Source of the DNA: a virus | Taxonomy: Duplodnaviria; Heunggongvirae; Uroviricota; Caudoviricetes | Direction: 5' to 3' (one strand) | Virus record (IMG/VR): IMGVR_UViG_2859827302_000001 | DNA length: 47,387 nt | Shown: piece after piece, positions 11,942 through 46,008 of the stretch | How the letters are laid out: each line of letters starts with the position of its first letter | How positions within the stretch are numbered: position 1 is the first letter of the stretch | Program-made: the position numbers and the translations under genes | The notes under the pieces: generated by a model | Told to the model about the DNA's origin: nothing | Databases searched by the model: none | The model's input: the letters and a program-made list of their open reading frames with translations, nothing else

Positions 11942-12664
11942 AGTGATGAAGAAAAAATACGAACTGGTTGTTAAAGGGATAAATAATTACCCGGATAAGA
12001 TTACTGTTACTGTGGCACTGGAAATTGGTGGGTATCCGTCACTGTTGTTGCCATATGTGGCGATTAGTCTTGACCGTACTGAAGGTGCCACGCTGGAGTT
12101 TTACGAAGCGGAGGCGAAAAAGCAGGCGAAGCAGTTTTTCATGGATGTTGCTGCCGGGTTATGTGAAGGGAACGAACCGTTGCAGGAAAAGCGCCCCATC
12201 ATTTTAGAGGCGCAGGATGTGTTGATAACCTACAGAGGAAAACTACCGGGAATAATTACTTGTTCTCTGAAGATGCCGCCGTCAACACTGCGGTCAGAAA
12301 AAGAGGCGTCTTGTCTGCAGTCTGAGTACTCCATTACGGTTAAAAGTGCCGGAGAGGAAGGAAATAAACGTTATTTTATTGCGTCTGCACCTGATAAAGA
12401 TCAGGAATGGGAGTGTAACCGGCCATCCTTTGTTGTATACGGAGATGGCGGGAAAATAACCATCTCAGAAAATGGGAAATTAACACCGCCATCGCACCAG
12501 CATAGTGAGGCGCTCATTGAATTTGCCATTGATTACCTGAAGAACAATAAAAAGCAGGGGCTGATGAAGTGCATTGGTCGTTGCATGGGATATCTGCAGA
12601 TAGCTGCTGAGATTGAAGCGCTGGCCAGTGGTGCTGATAAGGATGCAATGGTAATGACTCCAAC

Positions 12665-13168
12665 TTACTGATAGTGTTTTATGTTCAGATAATGCCCGAT
12701 GACCTTGTCATGCAGCTCCACCGATTTTGAGAACGACAGTGACTTCCGTCCCAGCCTTGCCAGATGTTGTCTCAGATTCAGATTATGTCGCTCAATGCGC
12801 TGAGTGTAACGCTTGCTGATAACGTGCAGCTTTCCCTTCAGGCGTGATTCATACAGCGGCCAGCCATCCGTCATCCATACCACGACCTCAAAGGCCGACA
12901 GCAGGCTCAGAAGACGCTCCAGTGTGGTCAGAGTGCGTTCACCGAAGACGTGCGCCACAACCGTCCTCCGTATCCTGTCATACGCGTAAAACAGCCAGCG
13001 CTGATGTGATTTAGCACCGACGTAGCCCCACTGTTCGTCCATTTCAGCGCAGACAATCACATCACTGCCCGGTTGTATGCGCGAGGTTACCGACTGCGGC
13101 CTGAGTTTTTTAAGTGACGTAAAACCGTGTTGAGGCCAACGCCCATAATGCGTGCACTGGCGCGACAT
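12665..13168 (-). CDS. insB: IS1 InsB (expressed as InsAB' by -1 frameshift)
   Basis: 167-aa ORF overlapping insA. Confidence 0.85.
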
Positions 13169-13362
13169 CCGACGCCATTCATGGCCATATCAATGATTTT
13201 CTGGTGCGTACCGGGCTGAGAGGCGGTGTAAGTGAACTGTAGTTGCCATGTTTTACGGCAATGAGAGCAGAGATAGCGCTGATGTCCGGCAGTGCTTTTG
13301 CCGTTACGCACCACGCCTTCAGTAGCGGAGCAGGAAGGACATCTGATGGAAATGGAAGCCAC
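13087..13362 (-). CDS. insA: IS1 InsA
   Basis: [23 protein letters not shown]... zinc-finger/HTH protein. Confidence 0.9.
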
Positions 13363-13565
13363 GCAAGCACCTTAAAATCACCATCATACACTAAATCAGT
13401 AAGTTGGCAGCATTACCGGATGCAATTGTGCGGGAGGCTCTTCTTCGTGATTTTAATACTCCACCCTTTAAAAAAGTGCCGGCTTACTGGCTTCATCCGG
13501 GGCTGACTTATCTTAAAGTGCGTATTTAGTGGGCCAGGGACAGCGGCTGAATATTTAATATATCC

Positions 13566-14099
13566 ATGAACACCAAAATCAAATACGGCCTGTCGGCTGC
13601 CGTTCTGGCGCTGATTGCCGCTGGTGCGCCTGCGCCTGACATTCTCGACCAGTTTCTGGATGAAAAGGAAGGTAACCACACCACGGCATACCGTGATGGC
13701 GCGGGTATCTGGACCATCTGCCGCGGTGCCATCCTGGTGGATGGCAAACCTGTCGTTCCGGGCATGAAGTTGTCGAAGGAAAAATGCGACCGGGTTAACG
13801 CCATTGAGCGTGATAAGGCGCTGGCATGGGTGGAGAAAAACATCAGAGTGCCATTGAGCGAACCCCAGAAAGCGGGGATCGCGTCATTCTGTCCGTACAA
13901 CATTGGTCCCGGTAAGTGTTTCCCGTCGACGTTTTATAAACGAATTAATGCAGGTGATCGCAGGGGAGCGTGTGAGGCGATTCGCTGGTGGATTAAGGAC
14001 GGTGGCAGAGACTGCCGTATTCGTTCAAACAACTGCTACGGTCAGGTATCCCGTCGTGACCAGGAGAGCGCGCTGGCGTGCTGGGGTATCGACAGATAA
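13566..14099 (+). CDS. R: SAR endolysin (T4-lysozyme-like, phage-21-type R)
   Basis: N-terminal signal-anchor-release segment (LSAAVLALIAAGA) then lysozyme core. Confidence 0.8.
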   Translation: MNTKIKYGLSAAVLALIAAGAPAPDILDQFLDEKEGNHTTAYRDGAGIWTICRGAILVDGKPVVPGMKLSKEKCDRVNAIERDKALAWVEKNIRVPLSEPQKAGIASFCPYNIGPGKCFPSTFYKRINAGDRRGACEAIRWWIKDGGRDCRIRSNNCYGQVSRRDQESALACWGIDR

Positions 14100-14194: not shown

Positions 14195-14228
14195 CCCGTT
14201 TGTTGGCTGCAAGCGGGGTTTTGTGTTT
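14195..14228 (+). terminator. terminator-like hairpin between R and Rz
   Basis: CCCGTTTG-7nt-CAAGCGGG (one GU) then GTTTTGTGTTT. Confidence 0.35.
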
Positions 14229-14297
14229 CCTGACTCTGGAAAAGTCAAAGGAGAAAGTGTGTTTGATTTTAGCAAACTGATTCGGGAGATTCGAGTG

Positions 14298-14397
14298 ATG
14301 GCTGAAAAATTATCCACCTGGAAGTTCATTCTTATCTGGCTGGTGTTTGTGATTATGGCCTCCGGTTATTTCATCGGTCAGATACGCTGGTGGTGAA
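14298..14397 (+). CDS. small hydrophobic ORF (32 aa) ahead of Rz
   Basis: [32 protein letters not shown]; stop TGA one nt before Rz ATG. Confidence 0.3.
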
Positions 14398-14865
14398 ATG
14401 AACCGCGTACTGTGCGTGGTCATCATTGCCCTGCTGGTGGCCTGTGGTGCGCTTAGTCTGGGGCTGAATCATTACCGTGATAACGCCATTACCTACAAAG
14501 CCCAGCGCGACAAAAATGTCAGAGAACTGAAGCTGGCGAACGCGGCAATTACTGACATGCAGATGCGTCAGCGTGATGTTGCTGCGCTCGATGCAAAATA
14601 CTCGAGGGAATTAGCCGATGCGAGAGCTGAAAATGAAACTCTTCGCGCTGACGTTGCCGCTGGTCGTAAGCGCCTGCGTATCAACGCCACCTGTCCAGGT
14701 CCCGTGCGTGAAGCCACCGGCACCGCCCGCGTGGATAATGCAACCGGCCCCCGACTGGCAGACACCGTTACACGGGATTATTTCACCCTCAGAGAGCGGC
14801 TGATGACGATGCAGAAGCAACTGGAAGGGGCGCAGGAATATATCCGTACTCAGTGCCTGAAATAA
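14398..14865 (+). CDS. Rz: Rz i-spanin
   Basis: N-terminal TM segment, coiled-coil periplasmic domain. Confidence 0.8.
14633..14803 (+). CDS. Rz1: Rz1 o-spanin lipoprotein embedded in +1 frame of Rz
   Basis: [15 protein letters not shown] lipobox, proline-rich mature part. Confidence 0.75.
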
Positions 14866-15732: not shown

Positions 15733-16059
15733 ATGACTAAAAATACTCGTTTTTCCCCTGAAGTCCGTCAACGGGCAGTCCGTATGGTTCTGGAAAGTCA
15801 GGGCGAATATGACTCACAATGGGCGACAATTTGTTCCATTGCTCCAAAGATTGGCTGTACGCCGGAGACTCTGCGTGTCTGGGTTCGCCAGCATGAGCGG
15901 GATACCGGGGGCGGTGATGGAGGGCTCACCACCGCTGAACGTCAGCGTCTGAAAGAGCTGGAGCGTGAAAATCGTGAACTGCGCCGCAGTAACGATATCC
16001 TTCGCCAGGCTTCCGCTTATTTTGCGAAGGCGGAGTTCGACCGCCTCTGGAAAAAATGA
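15733..16059 (+). CDS. IS629 OrfA
   Basis: [21 protein letters not shown]... Confidence 0.9.
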
Positions 16060-16946
16060 TGCCACTGCTGGATAAGCTGCGTGAGCAGTACGGGGTCGGA
16101 CCGCTATGCAGCGAACTGCATATTGCCCCGTCAACGTATTACCACTGTCAGCAACAGCGACATCATCCGGATAAACGCAGTGCCCGTGCGCAGCGCGATG
16201 ACTGGCTGAAGAAAGAGATACAGCGCGTATACGATGAAAATCACAAGGTATACGGTGTGCGTAAAGTCTGGCGTCAGTTGTTACGGGAAGGCATCAGAGT
16301 GGCCAGATGCACTGTGGCACGTCTCATGGCGGTTATGGGACTTGCCGGTGTTCTCCGGGGTAAAAAGGTCCGTACGACCATCAGCCGGAAAGCCGTTGCC
16401 GCAGGCGACCGCGTAAACCGTCAGTTCGTGGCAGAACGACCTGACCAGCTGTGGGTGGCTGATTTTACTTACGTCAGCACATGGCAGGGCTTCGTCTATG
16501 TGGCGTTCATCATTGATGTGTTTGCCGGATACATCGTGGGGTGGCGGGTCTCATCGTCCATGGAAACGACATTCGTGCTGGATGCTCTGGAGCAGGCGTT
16601 ATGGGCCCGTCGACCGTCCGGCACGGTCCATCACAGTGATAAAGGTTCTCAGTATGTATCGCTGGCCTACACACAGCGGCTTAAGGAAGCCGGATTACTG
16701 GCATCAACAGGAAGTACAGGCGACTCGTATGACAACGCGATGGCGGAGAGCATCAATGGTCTTTACAAAGCGGAGGTAATACACCGTAAGAGCTGGAAAA
16801 ACCGTGCAGAAGTGGAACTGGCCACACTCACGTGGGTGGACTGGTATAATAATCGACGATTGCTGGAAAGGCTGGGCCATACTCCTCCGGCAGAAGCAGA
16901 AAAAGCTTATTATGCTTCCATCGGAAACGATGATCTGGCAGCCTGA
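16056..16946 (+). CDS. IS629 OrfB transposase
   Basis: 296-aa DDE ORF overlapping orfA. Confidence 0.9.
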
Positions 16947-19826: not shown

Positions 19827-20192
19827 ATGATTGATGTCTTAGGGCCGGAGAAACGCAGACGGCGTACCACACAGGAAAAGATCGCAATTGTTCAGCAGAG
19901 CTTTGAACCGGGGATGACGGTCTCCCTCGTTGCCCGGCAACATGGTGTAGCAGCCAGCCAGTTATTTCTCTGGCGTAAGCAATACCAGGAAGGAAGTCTT
20001 ACTGCTGTGGCCGCCGGAGAACAGGTTGTTCCTGCCTCTGAACTTGCTGCCGCCATGAAGCAGATTAAAGAACTCCAGCGCCTGCTCGGCAAGAAAACGA
20101 TGGAAAATGAACTCCTCAAAGAAGCCGTTGAATATGGACGGGCAAAAAAGTGGATAGCGCACGCGCCCTTATTGCCCGGGGATGGGGAGTAA
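19827..20192 (+). CDS. insC: IS2 InsC
   Basis: [25 protein letters not shown]... Confidence 0.9.
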
Positions 20193-21055
20193 GCTTAGTC
20201 AGCCGTTGTCTCCGGGTGTCGCGTGCGCAGTTGCACGTCATTCTCAGACGAACCGATGACTGGATGGATGGCCGCCGCAGTCGTCACACTGATGATACGG
20301 ATGTGCTTCTCCGTATACACCATGTTATCGGAGAGCTGCCCACGTATGGTTATCGTCGGGTATGGGCGCTGCTTCGCAGACAGGCAGAACTTGATGGTAT
20401 GCCTGCGATCAATGCCAAACGTGTTTACCGGATCATGCGCCAGAATGCGCTGTTGCTTGAGCGAAAACCTGCTGTACCACCATCGAAACGGGCACATACA
20501 GGCAGAGTGGCCGTGAAAGAAAGCAATCAGCGATGGTGCTCTGACGGGTTCGAGTTCTGCTGTGATAACGGAGAGAGACTGCGTGTCACGTTCGCGCTGG
20601 ACTGCTGTGATCGTGAGGCACTGCACTGGGCGGTGACTACCGGCGGCTTCAACAGTGAAACAGTACAGGACGTCATGCTGGGAGCGGTGGAACGCCGCTT
20701 CGGCAACGATCTTCCGTCGTCTCCAGTGGAGTGGCTGACGGATAATGGTTCATGCTACCGGGCTAATGAAACACGCCAGTTCGCCCGGATGTTGGGACTT
20801 GAACCGAAGAACACGGCGGTGCGGAGTCCGGAGAGTAACGGAATAGCAGAGAGCTTCGTGAAAACGATAAAGCGTGACTACATCAGTATCATGCCCAAAC
20901 CAGACGGGTTAACGGCAGCAAAGAACCTTGCAGAGGCGTTCGAGCATTATAACGAATGGCATCCGCATAGTGCGCTGGGTTATCGCTCGCCACGGGAATA
21001 TCTGCGGCAGCGGGCTTGTAATGGGTTAAGTGATAACAGATGTCTGGAAATATAG
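20150..21055 (+). CDS. insD: IS2 InsD transposase
   Basis: 301-aa DDE ORF overlapping insC. Confidence 0.9.
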
Positions 21056-39820: not shown

Positions 39821-40606
39821 AGCAGTGCGACCAACAGCACTTCCGAGTCACTGGCGGCAACGCCAAAAGCGGTTAAGGTGGTAATGGGTGAAACGAACAA
39901 GAAAGCGCCCTTAAATAGTCCTGCACTGACCGGAACGCCAACAACACCAACTGCGCGACAGGGAACGAATAATACCCAAATCGCAAGCACGGCTTTCGTT
40001 ATGGCTGCGATTGCCGCCCTTGTAGATTCGTCACCTGACGCACTGAATACGCTGAACGAGTTAGCGGCGGCGCTGGGAAACGACCCGAATTTTGCGACCA
40101 CCATGACTAACGCGCTTGCGGGTAAGCAACCGAAAGATGCCACCCTGACGGCGCTGGCCGGGCTTACTACTGCGGCAGACAAGTTTCCGTATTTTACGGG
40201 GAATGATGTCGCCAGCCTGGCAACCCTGACAAAAGTCGGGCGGGATATTCTTGCGAAATCGACTGTTGCTGCCGTTATCGAATACCTCGGTTTACGAGAA
40301 CTCGGCACAAGCGGGGAGAAAATACCGTTACTCAGTACAGCGAATACCTGGACTAATCGACAAACATTCAGCGGTGGCCTTTCTGGTGAACTATCCGGCA
40401 ATGCTTCTACAGCTGCAAAATTAAAAACTGCCAGGAAAATAAGCAATGTGGCTTTTGATGGTTCCTCCGATATCACATTAAAAGCAAGTCATGTTGGTGC
40501 GTTTGCCTTAGGGAAAACAGGAAGCACCGTTGCGAATGATAAAGCAGTTGGGGTAATGCTGCCAACTTACTGATTTAGTGTATGATGGTGATTTTAAGGT
40601 GCTTGC

Positions 40607-40882
40607 GTGGCTTCCATTTCCATCAGATGCCCTTCCTGCTCCGCTACTGAAGGCGTGGTGCGTAACGGCAAAAGCACTGCCGGACATCAGCGCTATCTCT
40701 GCTCTCATTGCCGTAAAACATGGCAACTACAGTTCACTTACACCGCCTCTCAGCCCGGTACGCACCAGAAAATCATTGATATGGCCATGAATGGCGTCGG
40801 ATGTCGTGCCAGTGCACGCATTATGGGCGTTGGCCTCAACACGGTTTTACGTCACTTAAAAAACTCAGGCCGCAGTCGGTAA
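40607..40882 (+). CDS. insA: IS1 InsA
   Basis: Identical to the InsA of the 12650 copy. Confidence 0.9.
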
Positions 40883-41304
40883 CCTCGCGCATACAACCGG
40901 GCAGTGATGTGATTGTCTGCGCTGAAATGGACGAACAGTGGGGCTACGTCGGTGCTAAATCACGTCAGCGCTGGCTGTTTTACGCGTATGACAGGATACG
41001 GAGGACGGTTGTGGCGCACGTCTTCGGTGAACGCACTCTGGCCACACTGGAGCGTCTTCTGAGCCTGCTGTCGGCCTTTGAGGTCGTGGTATGGATGACG
41101 GATGGCTGGCCGCTGTATGAATCACGCCTGAAGGGAAAGCTGCACGTTATCAGCAAGCGTTACACTCAGCGCATTGAGCGACATAATCTGAATCTGAGAC
41201 AACATCTGGCAAGGCTGGGACGGAAGTCACTGTCGTTCTCAAAATCGGTGGAGCTGCATGACAAGGTCATCGGGCATTATCTGAACATAAAACACTATCA
41301 GTAA
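40801..41304 (+). CDS. insB: IS1 InsB
   Basis: 167-aa ORF. Confidence 0.85.
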
Positions 41305-41991
41305 GTTGGAGTCATTACCAGCAGTTGGATGGAACTGGAGTAGCGGAGCCTATAACGCAACTATTAGAGGTGCATCAACGTTAATTATTCATTTTTATAT
41401 GGGAGAAGGAAGTTGTCCTGCAGCTCAGTTTCGGATTAATTATAAAAATGGCGGTATTTTTTATCGTTCAGCCCGTGATGGTTATGGTTTTGAAGCCGAC
41501 TGGTCCGAATTTTACACCACCACCAGAAAACCTTCAGCAGGAGATGTTGGTGCACTGCCGTTATCTGGTGGTCAACTGAATGGTGCACTGGGTATCGGAA
41601 CAGCCAGTGCTCTTGGCGGTAATTCGATTGTATTGGGTGATAATGATACGGGCTTTAAACAAAATGGCGATGGTAATCTGGATGTTTATGCTAATAACGT
41701 CCATGTTATGCGCTTTGTCTCCGGAAGCATTCAAAGTAATAAAACCATAAATATTACGGGACGTGTTAATCCCTCGGATTACGGTAACTTTGATTCCCGC
41801 TATGTGAGAGATGTCAGACTTGGCACACGAGTTGTTCAGACCATGAAGAAAGGCGTGATGTATGAAAAATCAGGCCATGTAATCACGGGGCTTGGTATTA
41901 TCGGTGAAGTCGATGGTGATGATCCGGCAGTATTCAGACCAATACAAAAGTTAATTAACGGAACATGGTATAACGTATCGCAGGTATAATC

Positions 41992-44661: not shown

Positions 44662-45086
44662 TACTTATTTGGTGGACACCACTTTGTCTAATTCGTCAGA
44701 TTCTGACCAGACGGTTCAGGCTGTACGCTTACGCCTGCGCCGCATTGCGTATTACACAGCTTTTTGTAGATATATTTCCAGGCAGGCAGTGAAGAAGGTA
44801 AAACATGGAAATGGAATCAAATTGACCATGTAACGCCGCGGGATAAGGTTCAAAAACATCATGGCTAATTTTATGTTTAATTTTTGATTCCCCAGCCCTT
44901 GTAGATGCCGCGTTCAGACTAGCTTCGTTCAAATCCATTAAAGATATCAGACTACTCTCAGGTACGTGAGTAAGGTAAAACCCAGTTCCAACACCAATAT
45001 CCAGATGGTTGTTACCTACATGTTCCAGAAAGTGTGGAAGAAGGTGTTCCTTTGTAGGACATCCCCATGCAGGTAATGACTCCAAC

Positions 45087-45464
45087 TTATTGATAGTGTT
45101 TTATGTTCAGATAATGCCCGATGACTTTGTCATGCAGCTCCACCGATTTTGAGAACGACAGCGACTTCCGTCCCAGCCGTGCCAGGTGCTGCCTCAGATT
45201 CAGGTTATGCCGCTCAATTCGCTGCGTATATCGCTTGCTGATTACGTGCAGCTTTCCCTTCAGGCGGGATTCATACAGTGGCCAGCCATCCGTCATCCAT
45301 ATCACCACGTCAAAGGGTGACAGCAAGCTCATAAGACGCCCCAGCGTCGCCATAGTGCGTTTACCGAATACGTGCGCAACAACCGTCTTCCGGAGCCTGT
45401 CATACGCGTAAAACAGCCAGCGCTGGCGCGATTTAGCCCCGACGTATCCCCACTGTTCGTCCAT
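45087..45464 (-). CDS. insB: IS1 InsB
   Basis: ORF track gives the 125-aa part after an internal Met. Confidence 0.8.
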
Positions 45465-45508
45465 TTCCGCGCAGACGATGACGTCACTGCCCGGCTGTAT
45501 GCGCGAGG

Positions 45509-45784
45509 TTACCGACTGCGGCCTGAGTTTTTTAAGTGACGTAAAATCGTGTTGAGGCTAACGCCCATAATGCGTGCAGTTGCCCGGCATCCAACGCCAT
45601 TCATGGCCATATCAATAATTTTCTGGTGCGTACCGGGTTGAGAAGCGGTGTAAGTGAACTGCAGTTGCCATGTTTTACGGCAGTGAGAGCAGAGATAGCG
45701 CTGATGTCCGGCAGTGCTTTTGCCGTTACGCACCACCCCGTCAGTAGCTGAACAGGAGGGACAGCTGATAGAAACAGAAGCCAC
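45509..45784 (-). CDS. insA: IS1 InsA
   Basis: [23 protein letters not shown]... Confidence 0.9.
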
Positions 45785-46008
45785 TGGAGCACCTCAAAAA
45801 CACCATCATACACTAAATCAGTAAGTTGGCAGCATCACCCCCCATGCAAGCCGATTTGATACTCCCAAAACCCACCAGTCATAAAGCTTTAGGGTAAGTG
45901 GTGTGTAAATTTTAGCCCCATCATCTGTGTTTTTTTTCATTGATTTCACCATGTTATGGTTTTATTTGTGAATTAAATCAATTATGGCGATGAATTACAA
46001 GGGGTTAA

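Follow-up and report, generated by a model that had tools for sequence, protein, structure and literature searches.

The window analysed here, the whole 47,387-nucleotide stretch of IMG/VR virus record IMGVR_UViG_2859827302_000001, carries between its holin and lysozyme genes an interrupted copy of ydfR, which is almost beyond doubt a pseudogene of a long-form, two-domain member of the YdfR/DUF1327 family. It was broken by the insertion sequence (IS) IS1, which transposed into codon 235. The family is already named and widely annotated, and it is without an established function; the locus itself is ordinary rather than new. Taken as a whole, this identity, the inactivation and the mechanism proposed below for the intact protein are probably the best explanation of the locus. 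An earlier note, written from the sequence, had described an unrecognised gene inserted into a lysis cassette that normally runs S-R-Rz without interruption. Neither part of that description can be kept: the gene is recognised by Pfam (DUF1327), by the YdfR naming of PGAP and by a protein record (WP_047204768.1), and the order S-ydfR-R-Rz is stereotyped in P21/Stx-type cassettes (those of Qin, phage 86, H-19B, BP-4795 and all 80 IMG/VR loci that were inspected). The gene and its interruption have the following layout:

11726-11941, plus strand: class II (P21 S-type, pinholin-like) holin gene, 71 codons (Pfam PF04971 Phage_holin_2_1, E 2.3e-32)
11931-11938, plus strand: Shine-Dalgarno-like GGGGAGAG inside the end of the holin gene, read from the sequence
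11946-12649, plus strand: 5' part of ydfR, codons 1-234 plus 2 nt (PF07041, phrog_1085, AlphaFold2 (AF2) model)
12641-12649: left copy of the 9-bp target-site duplication GGATGCAAT
12650-13417, minus strand: IS1, exactly 768 bp, with insA (13087-13362) and insB (12665-13168) both on the minus strand
13418-13426: right copy of the 9-bp target-site duplication GGATGCAAT
13427-13529, plus strand: 3' part of ydfR, the last base of codon 235, codons 236-268 and TAG (stop-free restored frame)

Joining 11943-12649 to 13427-13529 (i.e. deleting 12650-13426), by reading of the sequence and by script, restores a frame of 810 nt that ends at TAG 13527-13529 and has no internal stop, just as the earlier note had reported. 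Counted from GTG 11943 the frame does have the ~269 codons given there, but the true start is ATG 11946, because the homologues all begin MKKKYEL, and the protein is 268 residues long. The junction with the holin gene reads GGGGAGAG TAA A GTG ATG, in which the holin stop codon TAA (11939-11941) is followed by one spacer base, and there is no overlap of the two genes through an ATGATG. The GGAGAG core of the Shine-Dalgarno sequence ends 7 nt before ATG 11946, and ydfR starts 7 nt past the last sense codon of the holin gene. The gap between the TAG and the start codon of the lysozyme gene R (13566) is 36 nt, one less than previously counted. For the holin, the mechanical open reading frame (ORF) reaches upstream to 11648, and gene callers give 71 residues at the identical locus L004 (CP026828.1, assembly GCA_002950015.1), which the window contains exactly. 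The 5' part of ydfR spans the DUF1327 domain (residues 1 to ~75), a variable middle that is predicted to be disordered (~76-153) and most of a conserved C-terminal domain, the conserved tail of which, DNPPFK...W..PG..YLK.R, is encoded by the 3' part.

The element at 12650-13417 has all the features by which IS1 is recognised (a length of 768 bp, imperfect terminal inverted repeats of ~23 bp, insA and insB, and a 9-bp target-site duplication), and nothing about it is unusual. Its terminal inverted repeats are GGTAATGACTCCAACTTACTGAT and GGTAATGCTGCCAACTTACTGAT (the right end is the reverse complement of GGTAATGCTGCCAACTTACTGAT), the two copies of GGATGCAAT are identical and flank it as a perfect 9-bp direct repeat, and Pfam DDE_Tnp_IS1 is recorded on the called IS1 gene in L004. 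The insertion is as clean as had been claimed. The disrupted product is 241 residues long, 234 native residues followed by MVMTPTY. Residues 235-268 are removed and with them the entire conserved tail, which holds the invariant P248 and K250 and the near-invariant W256, P259, G260, Y263 and L264. The long-form ORF is therefore not intact in this genome. This copy is almost certainly non-functional, because its truncated product lacks family-invariant positions and the prophage is without its Q/immunity region. For the exact 241-residue product NCBI already has an entry, the record named above, under the title 'MULTISPECIES: YdfR family protein [Shigella]', and its UniRef taxon is Shigella dysenteriae. 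The interrupted allele was found on 8 contigs, 4 of them chromosome-sized and from different assemblies, and the insertion site is shared by none of 5,426 complete E. coli genomes. Self-BLAST of the window reveals three copies of IS1 (12650-13417, 40552-41319 and 45072-45839). The second, which is oppositely oriented, is 99.5% identical to the copy in ydfR, and the third is an isoform that has diverged from it (90.8%).

The restored protein matches the Pfam DUF1327 (PF07041) hidden Markov model (HMM) over residues 1-100 with 147.3 bits, well above the curated gathering cut-off of 25 (E 1.6e-43), and it occupies the family's slot between a class II holin and a lysozyme. Over its full length it matches phrog_1085 (E 2e-159), a group annotated as of unknown function, and the PGAP/RefSeq name of its homologues is 'YdfR family protein'. 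Its assignment to the long form rests on 91-92% identity to an intact orthologue (P0001) and to phage 86 orf5, and on the presence of the motifs GRCMGYLQ and D/N-x-PPFK. No NCBIfam model matches it, and no family among the PADLOC-DB defence-protein HMMs does so at E <= 0.1.

Three relatives are instructive. One is orf5 of phage 86 (BAF34037.1; phrog_1085), named 'YdfR family protein' in RefSeq and taken from a deposited complete genome of a Shiga toxin 2 (Stx2)-converting phage. It is a full-length, two-domain orthologue of 268 residues, 92% identical, with the same start context after S. Unlike the window copy, which is split by IS1 and has only 36 nt before R, orf5 is uninterrupted, and a convergent ORF of 104 residues, orf6, lies between it and R. 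YdfR of E. coli K-12 (b1555, P76160), encoded by the cryptic prophage Qin, has a homologous N-terminal domain (45% identity between the window domain and K-12 residues 1-77) and lies in an identical slot, between the class II holin gene essQ and the lysozyme gene rrrQ. However, it is only 103 residues long and lacks the C-terminal domain and the middle modules, whereas the window gene is a 268-residue long form interrupted by IS1; the binding of RNase E and RNA has been reported for the K-12 protein only (PMC13232886). Distant relatives are 'hypothetical proteins' of 250-320 residues from Salmonella enterica prophages (e.g. P0199 and P0213). They share the β-β-β-α N-terminal domain, the variable linker and the conserved C-terminal domain with its motifs GR[CAS]MG[LY]LQVAAEIE and DNPPFK..W..PG..YLK.R, and they too adjoin a class II holin-lysozyme-Rz cassette. 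They differ in that the identity is ~30%, the N-terminal domain falls under the Pfam DUF1327 threshold (E 0.043), and the gene, which Q and a HicAB pair precede, is located just upstream of the holin instead of between holin and lysozyme and has a convergent ORF of ~100 residues behind it. In two of these prophages (L010 and L012) the homologue carries no Pfam annotation and lies upstream of an HP1-type holin, next to HicA/HicB and downstream of Q.

The alignment of the family resolves four modules: (a) the DUF1327 domain (~residues 1-75); (b) a brief segment that is conserved, RPIILEAQDVLITYKGKLPG; (c) the hypervariable middle part, which is coiled-coil-like in many alleles and reads EASCLQSEYSITVKSAGEEGNKRYFIASAPDKDQ in the window; and (d) the C-terminal domain of ~115 residues, the best-conserved part across Escherichia and Salmonella. 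In module (d), H186, L198, G211, G215, L217, Q218, A221, P248 and K250 are invariant, and the near-invariant positions include R212 in addition to the five in the lost tail. Short forms (103-115 residues) lack module (d), and the K-12 protein also lacks (b) and (c). Long forms have 268, 287, 296 or 325-333 residues, and proteins consisting of the C-terminal domain without DUF1327 have 185 or 213. At two loci (L014/L015, 4001-4897) the modules are both split and permuted: the holin gene is followed by genes for a 213-residue protein (coiled coil and C-terminal domain) and a 75-residue DUF1327 protein, then by a convergent ORF and the lysozyme gene. The fusion of the two domains in some genomes and their separation in others, an argument of the Rosetta-stone type, suggests that they act together.

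The long form is predicted to be a soluble protein in which a disordered linker connects two small folded domains. Its most hydrophobic 19-residue window scores 1.29 on the Kyte-Doolittle scale, no transmembrane segment is predicted, and the grand average of hydropathy is -0.28; the isoelectric point (pI) is 5.3 for the N-terminal domain and 8.5 for the C-terminal domain. An antiholin or other membrane protein was considered and rejected, there being no hydrophobic segment. The intact, 91%-identical orthologue P0001 stood in for the restored protein in the AF2 models and in the search of cluster representatives. A first model, from 15 close homologues, was poor, with a predicted local distance difference test score (pLDDT) of 48. 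A second, from 59 sequences including the Salmonella relatives, reached a mean pLDDT of 60, with the domains mostly at 66-89. Its N-terminal domain is a β-β-β-α unit (strands 5-14, 18-27 and 37-43, helix 50-73; pLDDT 66-88), residues 73-152 form the linker (pLDDT below 50), and the C-terminal domain consists of three short strands (162-180) and helices 184-200, 206-227 and 234-244 (pLDDT 63-89). The suggestion that both domains are β-β-β-α copies of one duplicated unit was rejected, with an hhalign probability of 0.2% between them. Structure prediction, which the earlier note had proposed, yielded no significant fold match: the best Foldseek hit in the Protein Data Bank (PDB) has an E-value of 0.29, and the best in BFVD, to uncharacterised proteins, 5.8e-3, which is not significant. 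Sequence and profile searches against solved structures (PDB sequences) returned only noise (E >= 0.2), and lenient Pfam scans with the C-terminal domain alone gave nothing credible.

The reading frame is the same across hundreds of genomes and is therefore not a chance ORF, which bears out the earlier claim of a real protein-coding gene. Compared with orf5 of phage 86, the ratio of nonsynonymous to synonymous substitution rates (dN/dS) is 0.50 for the whole and 0.14 for the N-terminal domain; on this sequence evidence the gene encodes a real, constrained protein. One could instead regard the sequence as evolutionary filler, a linker for recombination between S and R that has no function as a protein. 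The architecture is indeed highly mosaic, fragments are frequent, the ratio between close alleles is only moderately below 1, and the gene is easily lost, as it was in the window. Filler would not, however, be expected to keep both domains and their invariant residues between Escherichia and Salmonella at ~30% identity, or so low a ratio in the N-terminal domain. AF2 also predicts folded domains once the alignment is diverse, and the K-12 protein is stable and makes specific interactions (PMC13232886). We consider a filler role highly improbable.

Where lambdoid P21/Stx-type cassettes of Escherichia and Shigella have an additional gene that separates the class II holin from the R21-type lysozyme, it is usually a member of this family. 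In the Qin prophage of K-12 the order is essQ-ydfR-rrrQ-rzpQ/rzoQ, where ydfR begins 4 nt past essQ and has a 4-nt overlap with rrrQ; in phage 86 it is S-orf5-(orf6, convergent)-R-ant-Rz/Rz1-bor. Short or long forms are also found in H-19B, BP-4795, mEp460 and dozens of Stx1a, Stx2c and Stx2a phages. The search for homologues in other prophage cassettes, which the earlier note had recommended, covered IMG/VR, E. coli genomes and phage records. In IMG/VR, 186 contigs encode a relative, and all 80 that were retrieved for their layout are compatible, allowing for contig ends, with the order holin, YdfR N-terminal domain, C-terminal domain, lysozyme, Rz. The spacing of 7 nt between holin and ydfR, as in the window, recurs in 69 of 74 loci, and the gap between ydfR and R is 39 nt (the stop codon counted, which equals the gap in the window), 45 nt or, with a convergent ORF, ~455 nt. 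By megablast, the 5' 707 nt match 2,936 of the 5,426 complete E. coli genomes, 553 of them over at least 80% of the query, with up to 9 copies per genome. Relatives are present in 101-103 of 50,697 phage records. The family is narrow, with only 71 matching clusters at 50% identity among 1.84 billion representatives; of the species-representative genomes no more than three contain a match, each of them from Escherichia or Shigella, and distant members occur in Salmonella enterica prophages. The earlier note had allowed for a routine, characterised lysis-cassette gene. Routine it is, but it is still essentially uncharacterised. In E. coli N32 (L009, 4002-4808) a gene 99.3% identical to that of the window is tagged by PGAP as a pseudogene 'missing C-terminus'. 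Its frame of 268 codons runs unbroken to the usual ...TYLKGRI stop, so the tag is probably an annotation artefact that arose from comparison with longer family members.

The remainder of the cassette in the window is composed as follows:

13566-14099, plus strand: R21-like lysozyme gene R (Pfam PF00959, E 1.3e-23)
14223-14396, plus strand: ORF of 57 residues between R and Rz (phrog_6632)
14398-14865, plus strand: Rz i-spanin gene (Pfam PF03245, E 3.8e-50)
14618-14803: Rz1 lipoprotein ORF embedded in Rz, from translation

With its PF04971 holin, PF00959 lysozyme and Rz with embedded Rz1, the cassette is of the pinholin/SAR-endolysin (phage 21) type. The N-terminus of the lysozyme, MNTKIKYGLSAAVLALIAAGAPAP, is hydrophobic and rich in Ala and Gly and resembles a SAR (signal-anchor-release) domain, as which it would probably behave. 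The 57-residue ORF has a hydrophobic C-terminal half and belongs to a group without an assigned function; it is a further small conserved gene within the lysis cassette.

Such a position invites the idea that YdfR, when intact, regulates the pinholin/SAR-endolysin pathway from the cytoplasm, acting on lysis timing, holin triggering or endolysin supply, and this would explain why the gene is seated inside the cassette. The constancy of the S-YdfR-R order in the viral loci, the coupling at 7 nt in most of them and the like arrangement in Qin and phage 86 all point in this direction. The distant Salmonella homologues also adjoin a class II holin and a lysozyme with a SAR-like N-terminus, and a genetic screen lists ydfR as important for envelope integrity (according to PMC13232886). 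On the other hand, the protein lacks both a transmembrane segment and a signal peptide, so that a membrane role like that of known antiholins is not open to it. The Salmonella copy is upstream of the holin with a convergent ORF between, so that adjacency is conserved and not a fixed position in the cassette, and short, long, split and permuted forms all persist. To our knowledge, the cassettes of phages 21 and 933W lyse their hosts without such a gene. A role in regulating lysis is, on balance, unlikely.

In many intact relatives a small convergent ORF of 95-105 residues comes after a long ydfR, on the minus strand at 4809-5123 in L007, 5809-6126 in L012, 4902-5189 in L014 and 5849-6145 in L010. 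Orf6 of phage 86 and the Salmonella version at L012 are 44% identical (phrog_1853), and the version at L014 belongs to phrog_10490. This ORF may be a functional partner of YdfR; it is absent from the window and from E. coli N32. A conserved convergent partner, shared by phage 86 and a Salmonella prophage, is one of the reasons to think of a moron-type accessory or conflict gene, which might, for example, exclude or interfere with other phages or mobile elements and would merely fill a permissive slot in the late operon, possibly working with the convergent ORF. Cargo genes are known to be concentrated in this neighbourhood (nanS-p, tRNAs, ant and bor, and HicAB in Salmonella), and the shuffling of domains is extreme, giving many length classes between 103 and 333 residues. 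This idea is weakened by the PADLOC result, by the missing partner in the window and in N32, where the long gene is otherwise intact, and by a promoter scan upstream of ydfR, which found nothing. With no promoter of its own and a start so close behind the last holin codon, the gene would not be expected to be expressed in a repressed lysogen. We regard a moron-type function as very unlikely.

RraA and RraB are host inhibitors of RNase E, and the function that we tentatively favour for YdfR also concerns this enzyme: the intact phage protein is possibly a cytoplasmic, late-expressed accessory factor that binds RNase E or RNA, with the C-terminal domain adding a second function. The lead comes from a 2026 study of the K-12 protein (PMC13232886), in which a bacterial adenylate cyclase two-hybrid (BACTH) screen with the RNase E paralogue RNase G (Rng) as the bait yielded, three times, a fragment of ydfR covering codons 1-72. 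Residues 1-72 bind RNase E's catalytic domain, and both they and full-length YdfR give BACTH signals with RNase E 1-597 (PMC13232886). Furthermore, Strep-tagged YdfR co-purified FLAG-tagged RNase E 1-598, and the eluate was rich in DNase-resistant nucleic acid; overproduction was not reported to be toxic (PMC13232886). In these properties YdfR is functionally analogous to RapZ, a host RNase E adaptor, but unlike RapZ it gave no signal with the shorter RNase E 1-415 (PMC13232886). No similarity in sequence or fold to RapZ, RraA or RraB was found, and YdfR differs from them in being phage-encoded, in a late operon. A search of the literature on DUF1327, ydfR and essQ/rrrQ found no other functional study; one overexpression screen lists ydfR with a 3-fold increase in the minimum inhibitory concentration of streptomycin.

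The proposed mechanism would run as follows. The intact protein would be soluble and cytoplasmic, and it would be translated from the late pR' transcript right after the holin, to whose gene it appears to be coupled. The late co-expression with the lysis genes that the earlier note had put forward fits this tight coupling, judged from position. With its N-terminal β-β-β-α DUF1327 domain it would attach to the catalytic N-terminal half of the host's RNase E, to RNA or to both, and the separately conserved C-terminal domain would supply a second activity or specificity. Through the two domains this phage protein would modulate RNA decay, or serve it as an adaptor, at a late stage of infection, and would not belong to the lysis machinery itself. 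An extended form of the proposal, in which long-form YdfR is a late RNase E adaptor whose C-terminal domain picks RNA or protein targets, so that, in Stx-type phages, the decay of the long late transcript with the stx, lysis and morphogenesis genes is controlled and the fused and split forms mark a two-component module, is speculative and quite unlikely.

Several observations weigh against a role in RNA decay. The RNase E data concern the short, 103-residue K-12 allele, which is only 45% identical (PMC13232886), and they would reach the long form and its C-terminal domain by homology. Overproduction of YdfR changed few transcripts, and according to the authors a contaminant could not be excluded as the source of the RNA (PMC13232886). 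The acidic N-terminal domain disfavours direct binding of RNA, and the Pfam, PDB and BFVD searches found no structural or profile similarity to RNA-binding or RNase-regulating proteins. The strict linkage to the lysis genes suits a role in lysis equally well.

The window is a segment of the Shigella dysenteriae chromosome with a decayed, IS-ridden prophage. Upstream of the holin gene it contains:

7921-8877, plus strand: truncated N6/N4 DNA methyltransferase gene
8927-9176, plus strand: three tRNA genes (Met-CAT, Arg-TCG and Arg-TCT)
9252-9457, plus strand: STnc100 small RNA (RF02076, full-length match, 143 bits)
9680-11575, plus strand: NanS-p-type sialate O-acetylesterase gene, split by an in-frame TAA

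The in-frame TAA, near 9911, divides the esterase into a 77-residue DUF1737 piece and a 542-residue SASA+DUF6645 piece; intact relatives have ~650 residues. No stx gene was found between the tRNAs and nanS-p, the slot where Stx phages carry stxAB, and 7921-8877, once considered as stxA, was rejected as the truncated methyltransferase. The integrase gene is split by an IS3-family element into a C-terminal part (657-1337) and an N-terminal part (2416-3195), and an inverted, 99.9% identical copy of this element (1258-2464 vs 6794-8000), in the region 5937-8000, abuts the truncated methyltransferase gene. In related genomes (L001-L003) genes for a DnaB-like protein, DUF968 and the Q antiterminator lie upstream of the methyltransferase; they are missing from the window. 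The prophage is defective, its Q and immunity region having been lost to IS3-family elements. Since Q is missing, normal expression of the late operon is impossible, and with IS1 in it as well, ydfR is dead twice over. Terminase, portal and head genes follow the cassette and are themselves struck by IS3-family elements: one (15733-16946) is located just upstream of the small terminase gene and contains an ALIL frameshift pseudoknot (RF01497, 16014-16130), and another (~19827-21055) is inserted into the portal gene, at its 5' end.

The window copy of ydfR matters little, being another IS-inactivated gene in a decayed Shigella prophage that is already annotated publicly. What interest remains attaches to the family. 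It is very common, in that over half of the complete E. coli genomes that were searched contain a match, and it lies near stx, a few hundred bases downstream of it in many Stx1a, Stx2c and some Stx2a phages. If the binding of RNase E extends to the phage-borne long forms, they may affect the stability of late transcripts and, in turn, the expression of toxin and lysis genes.

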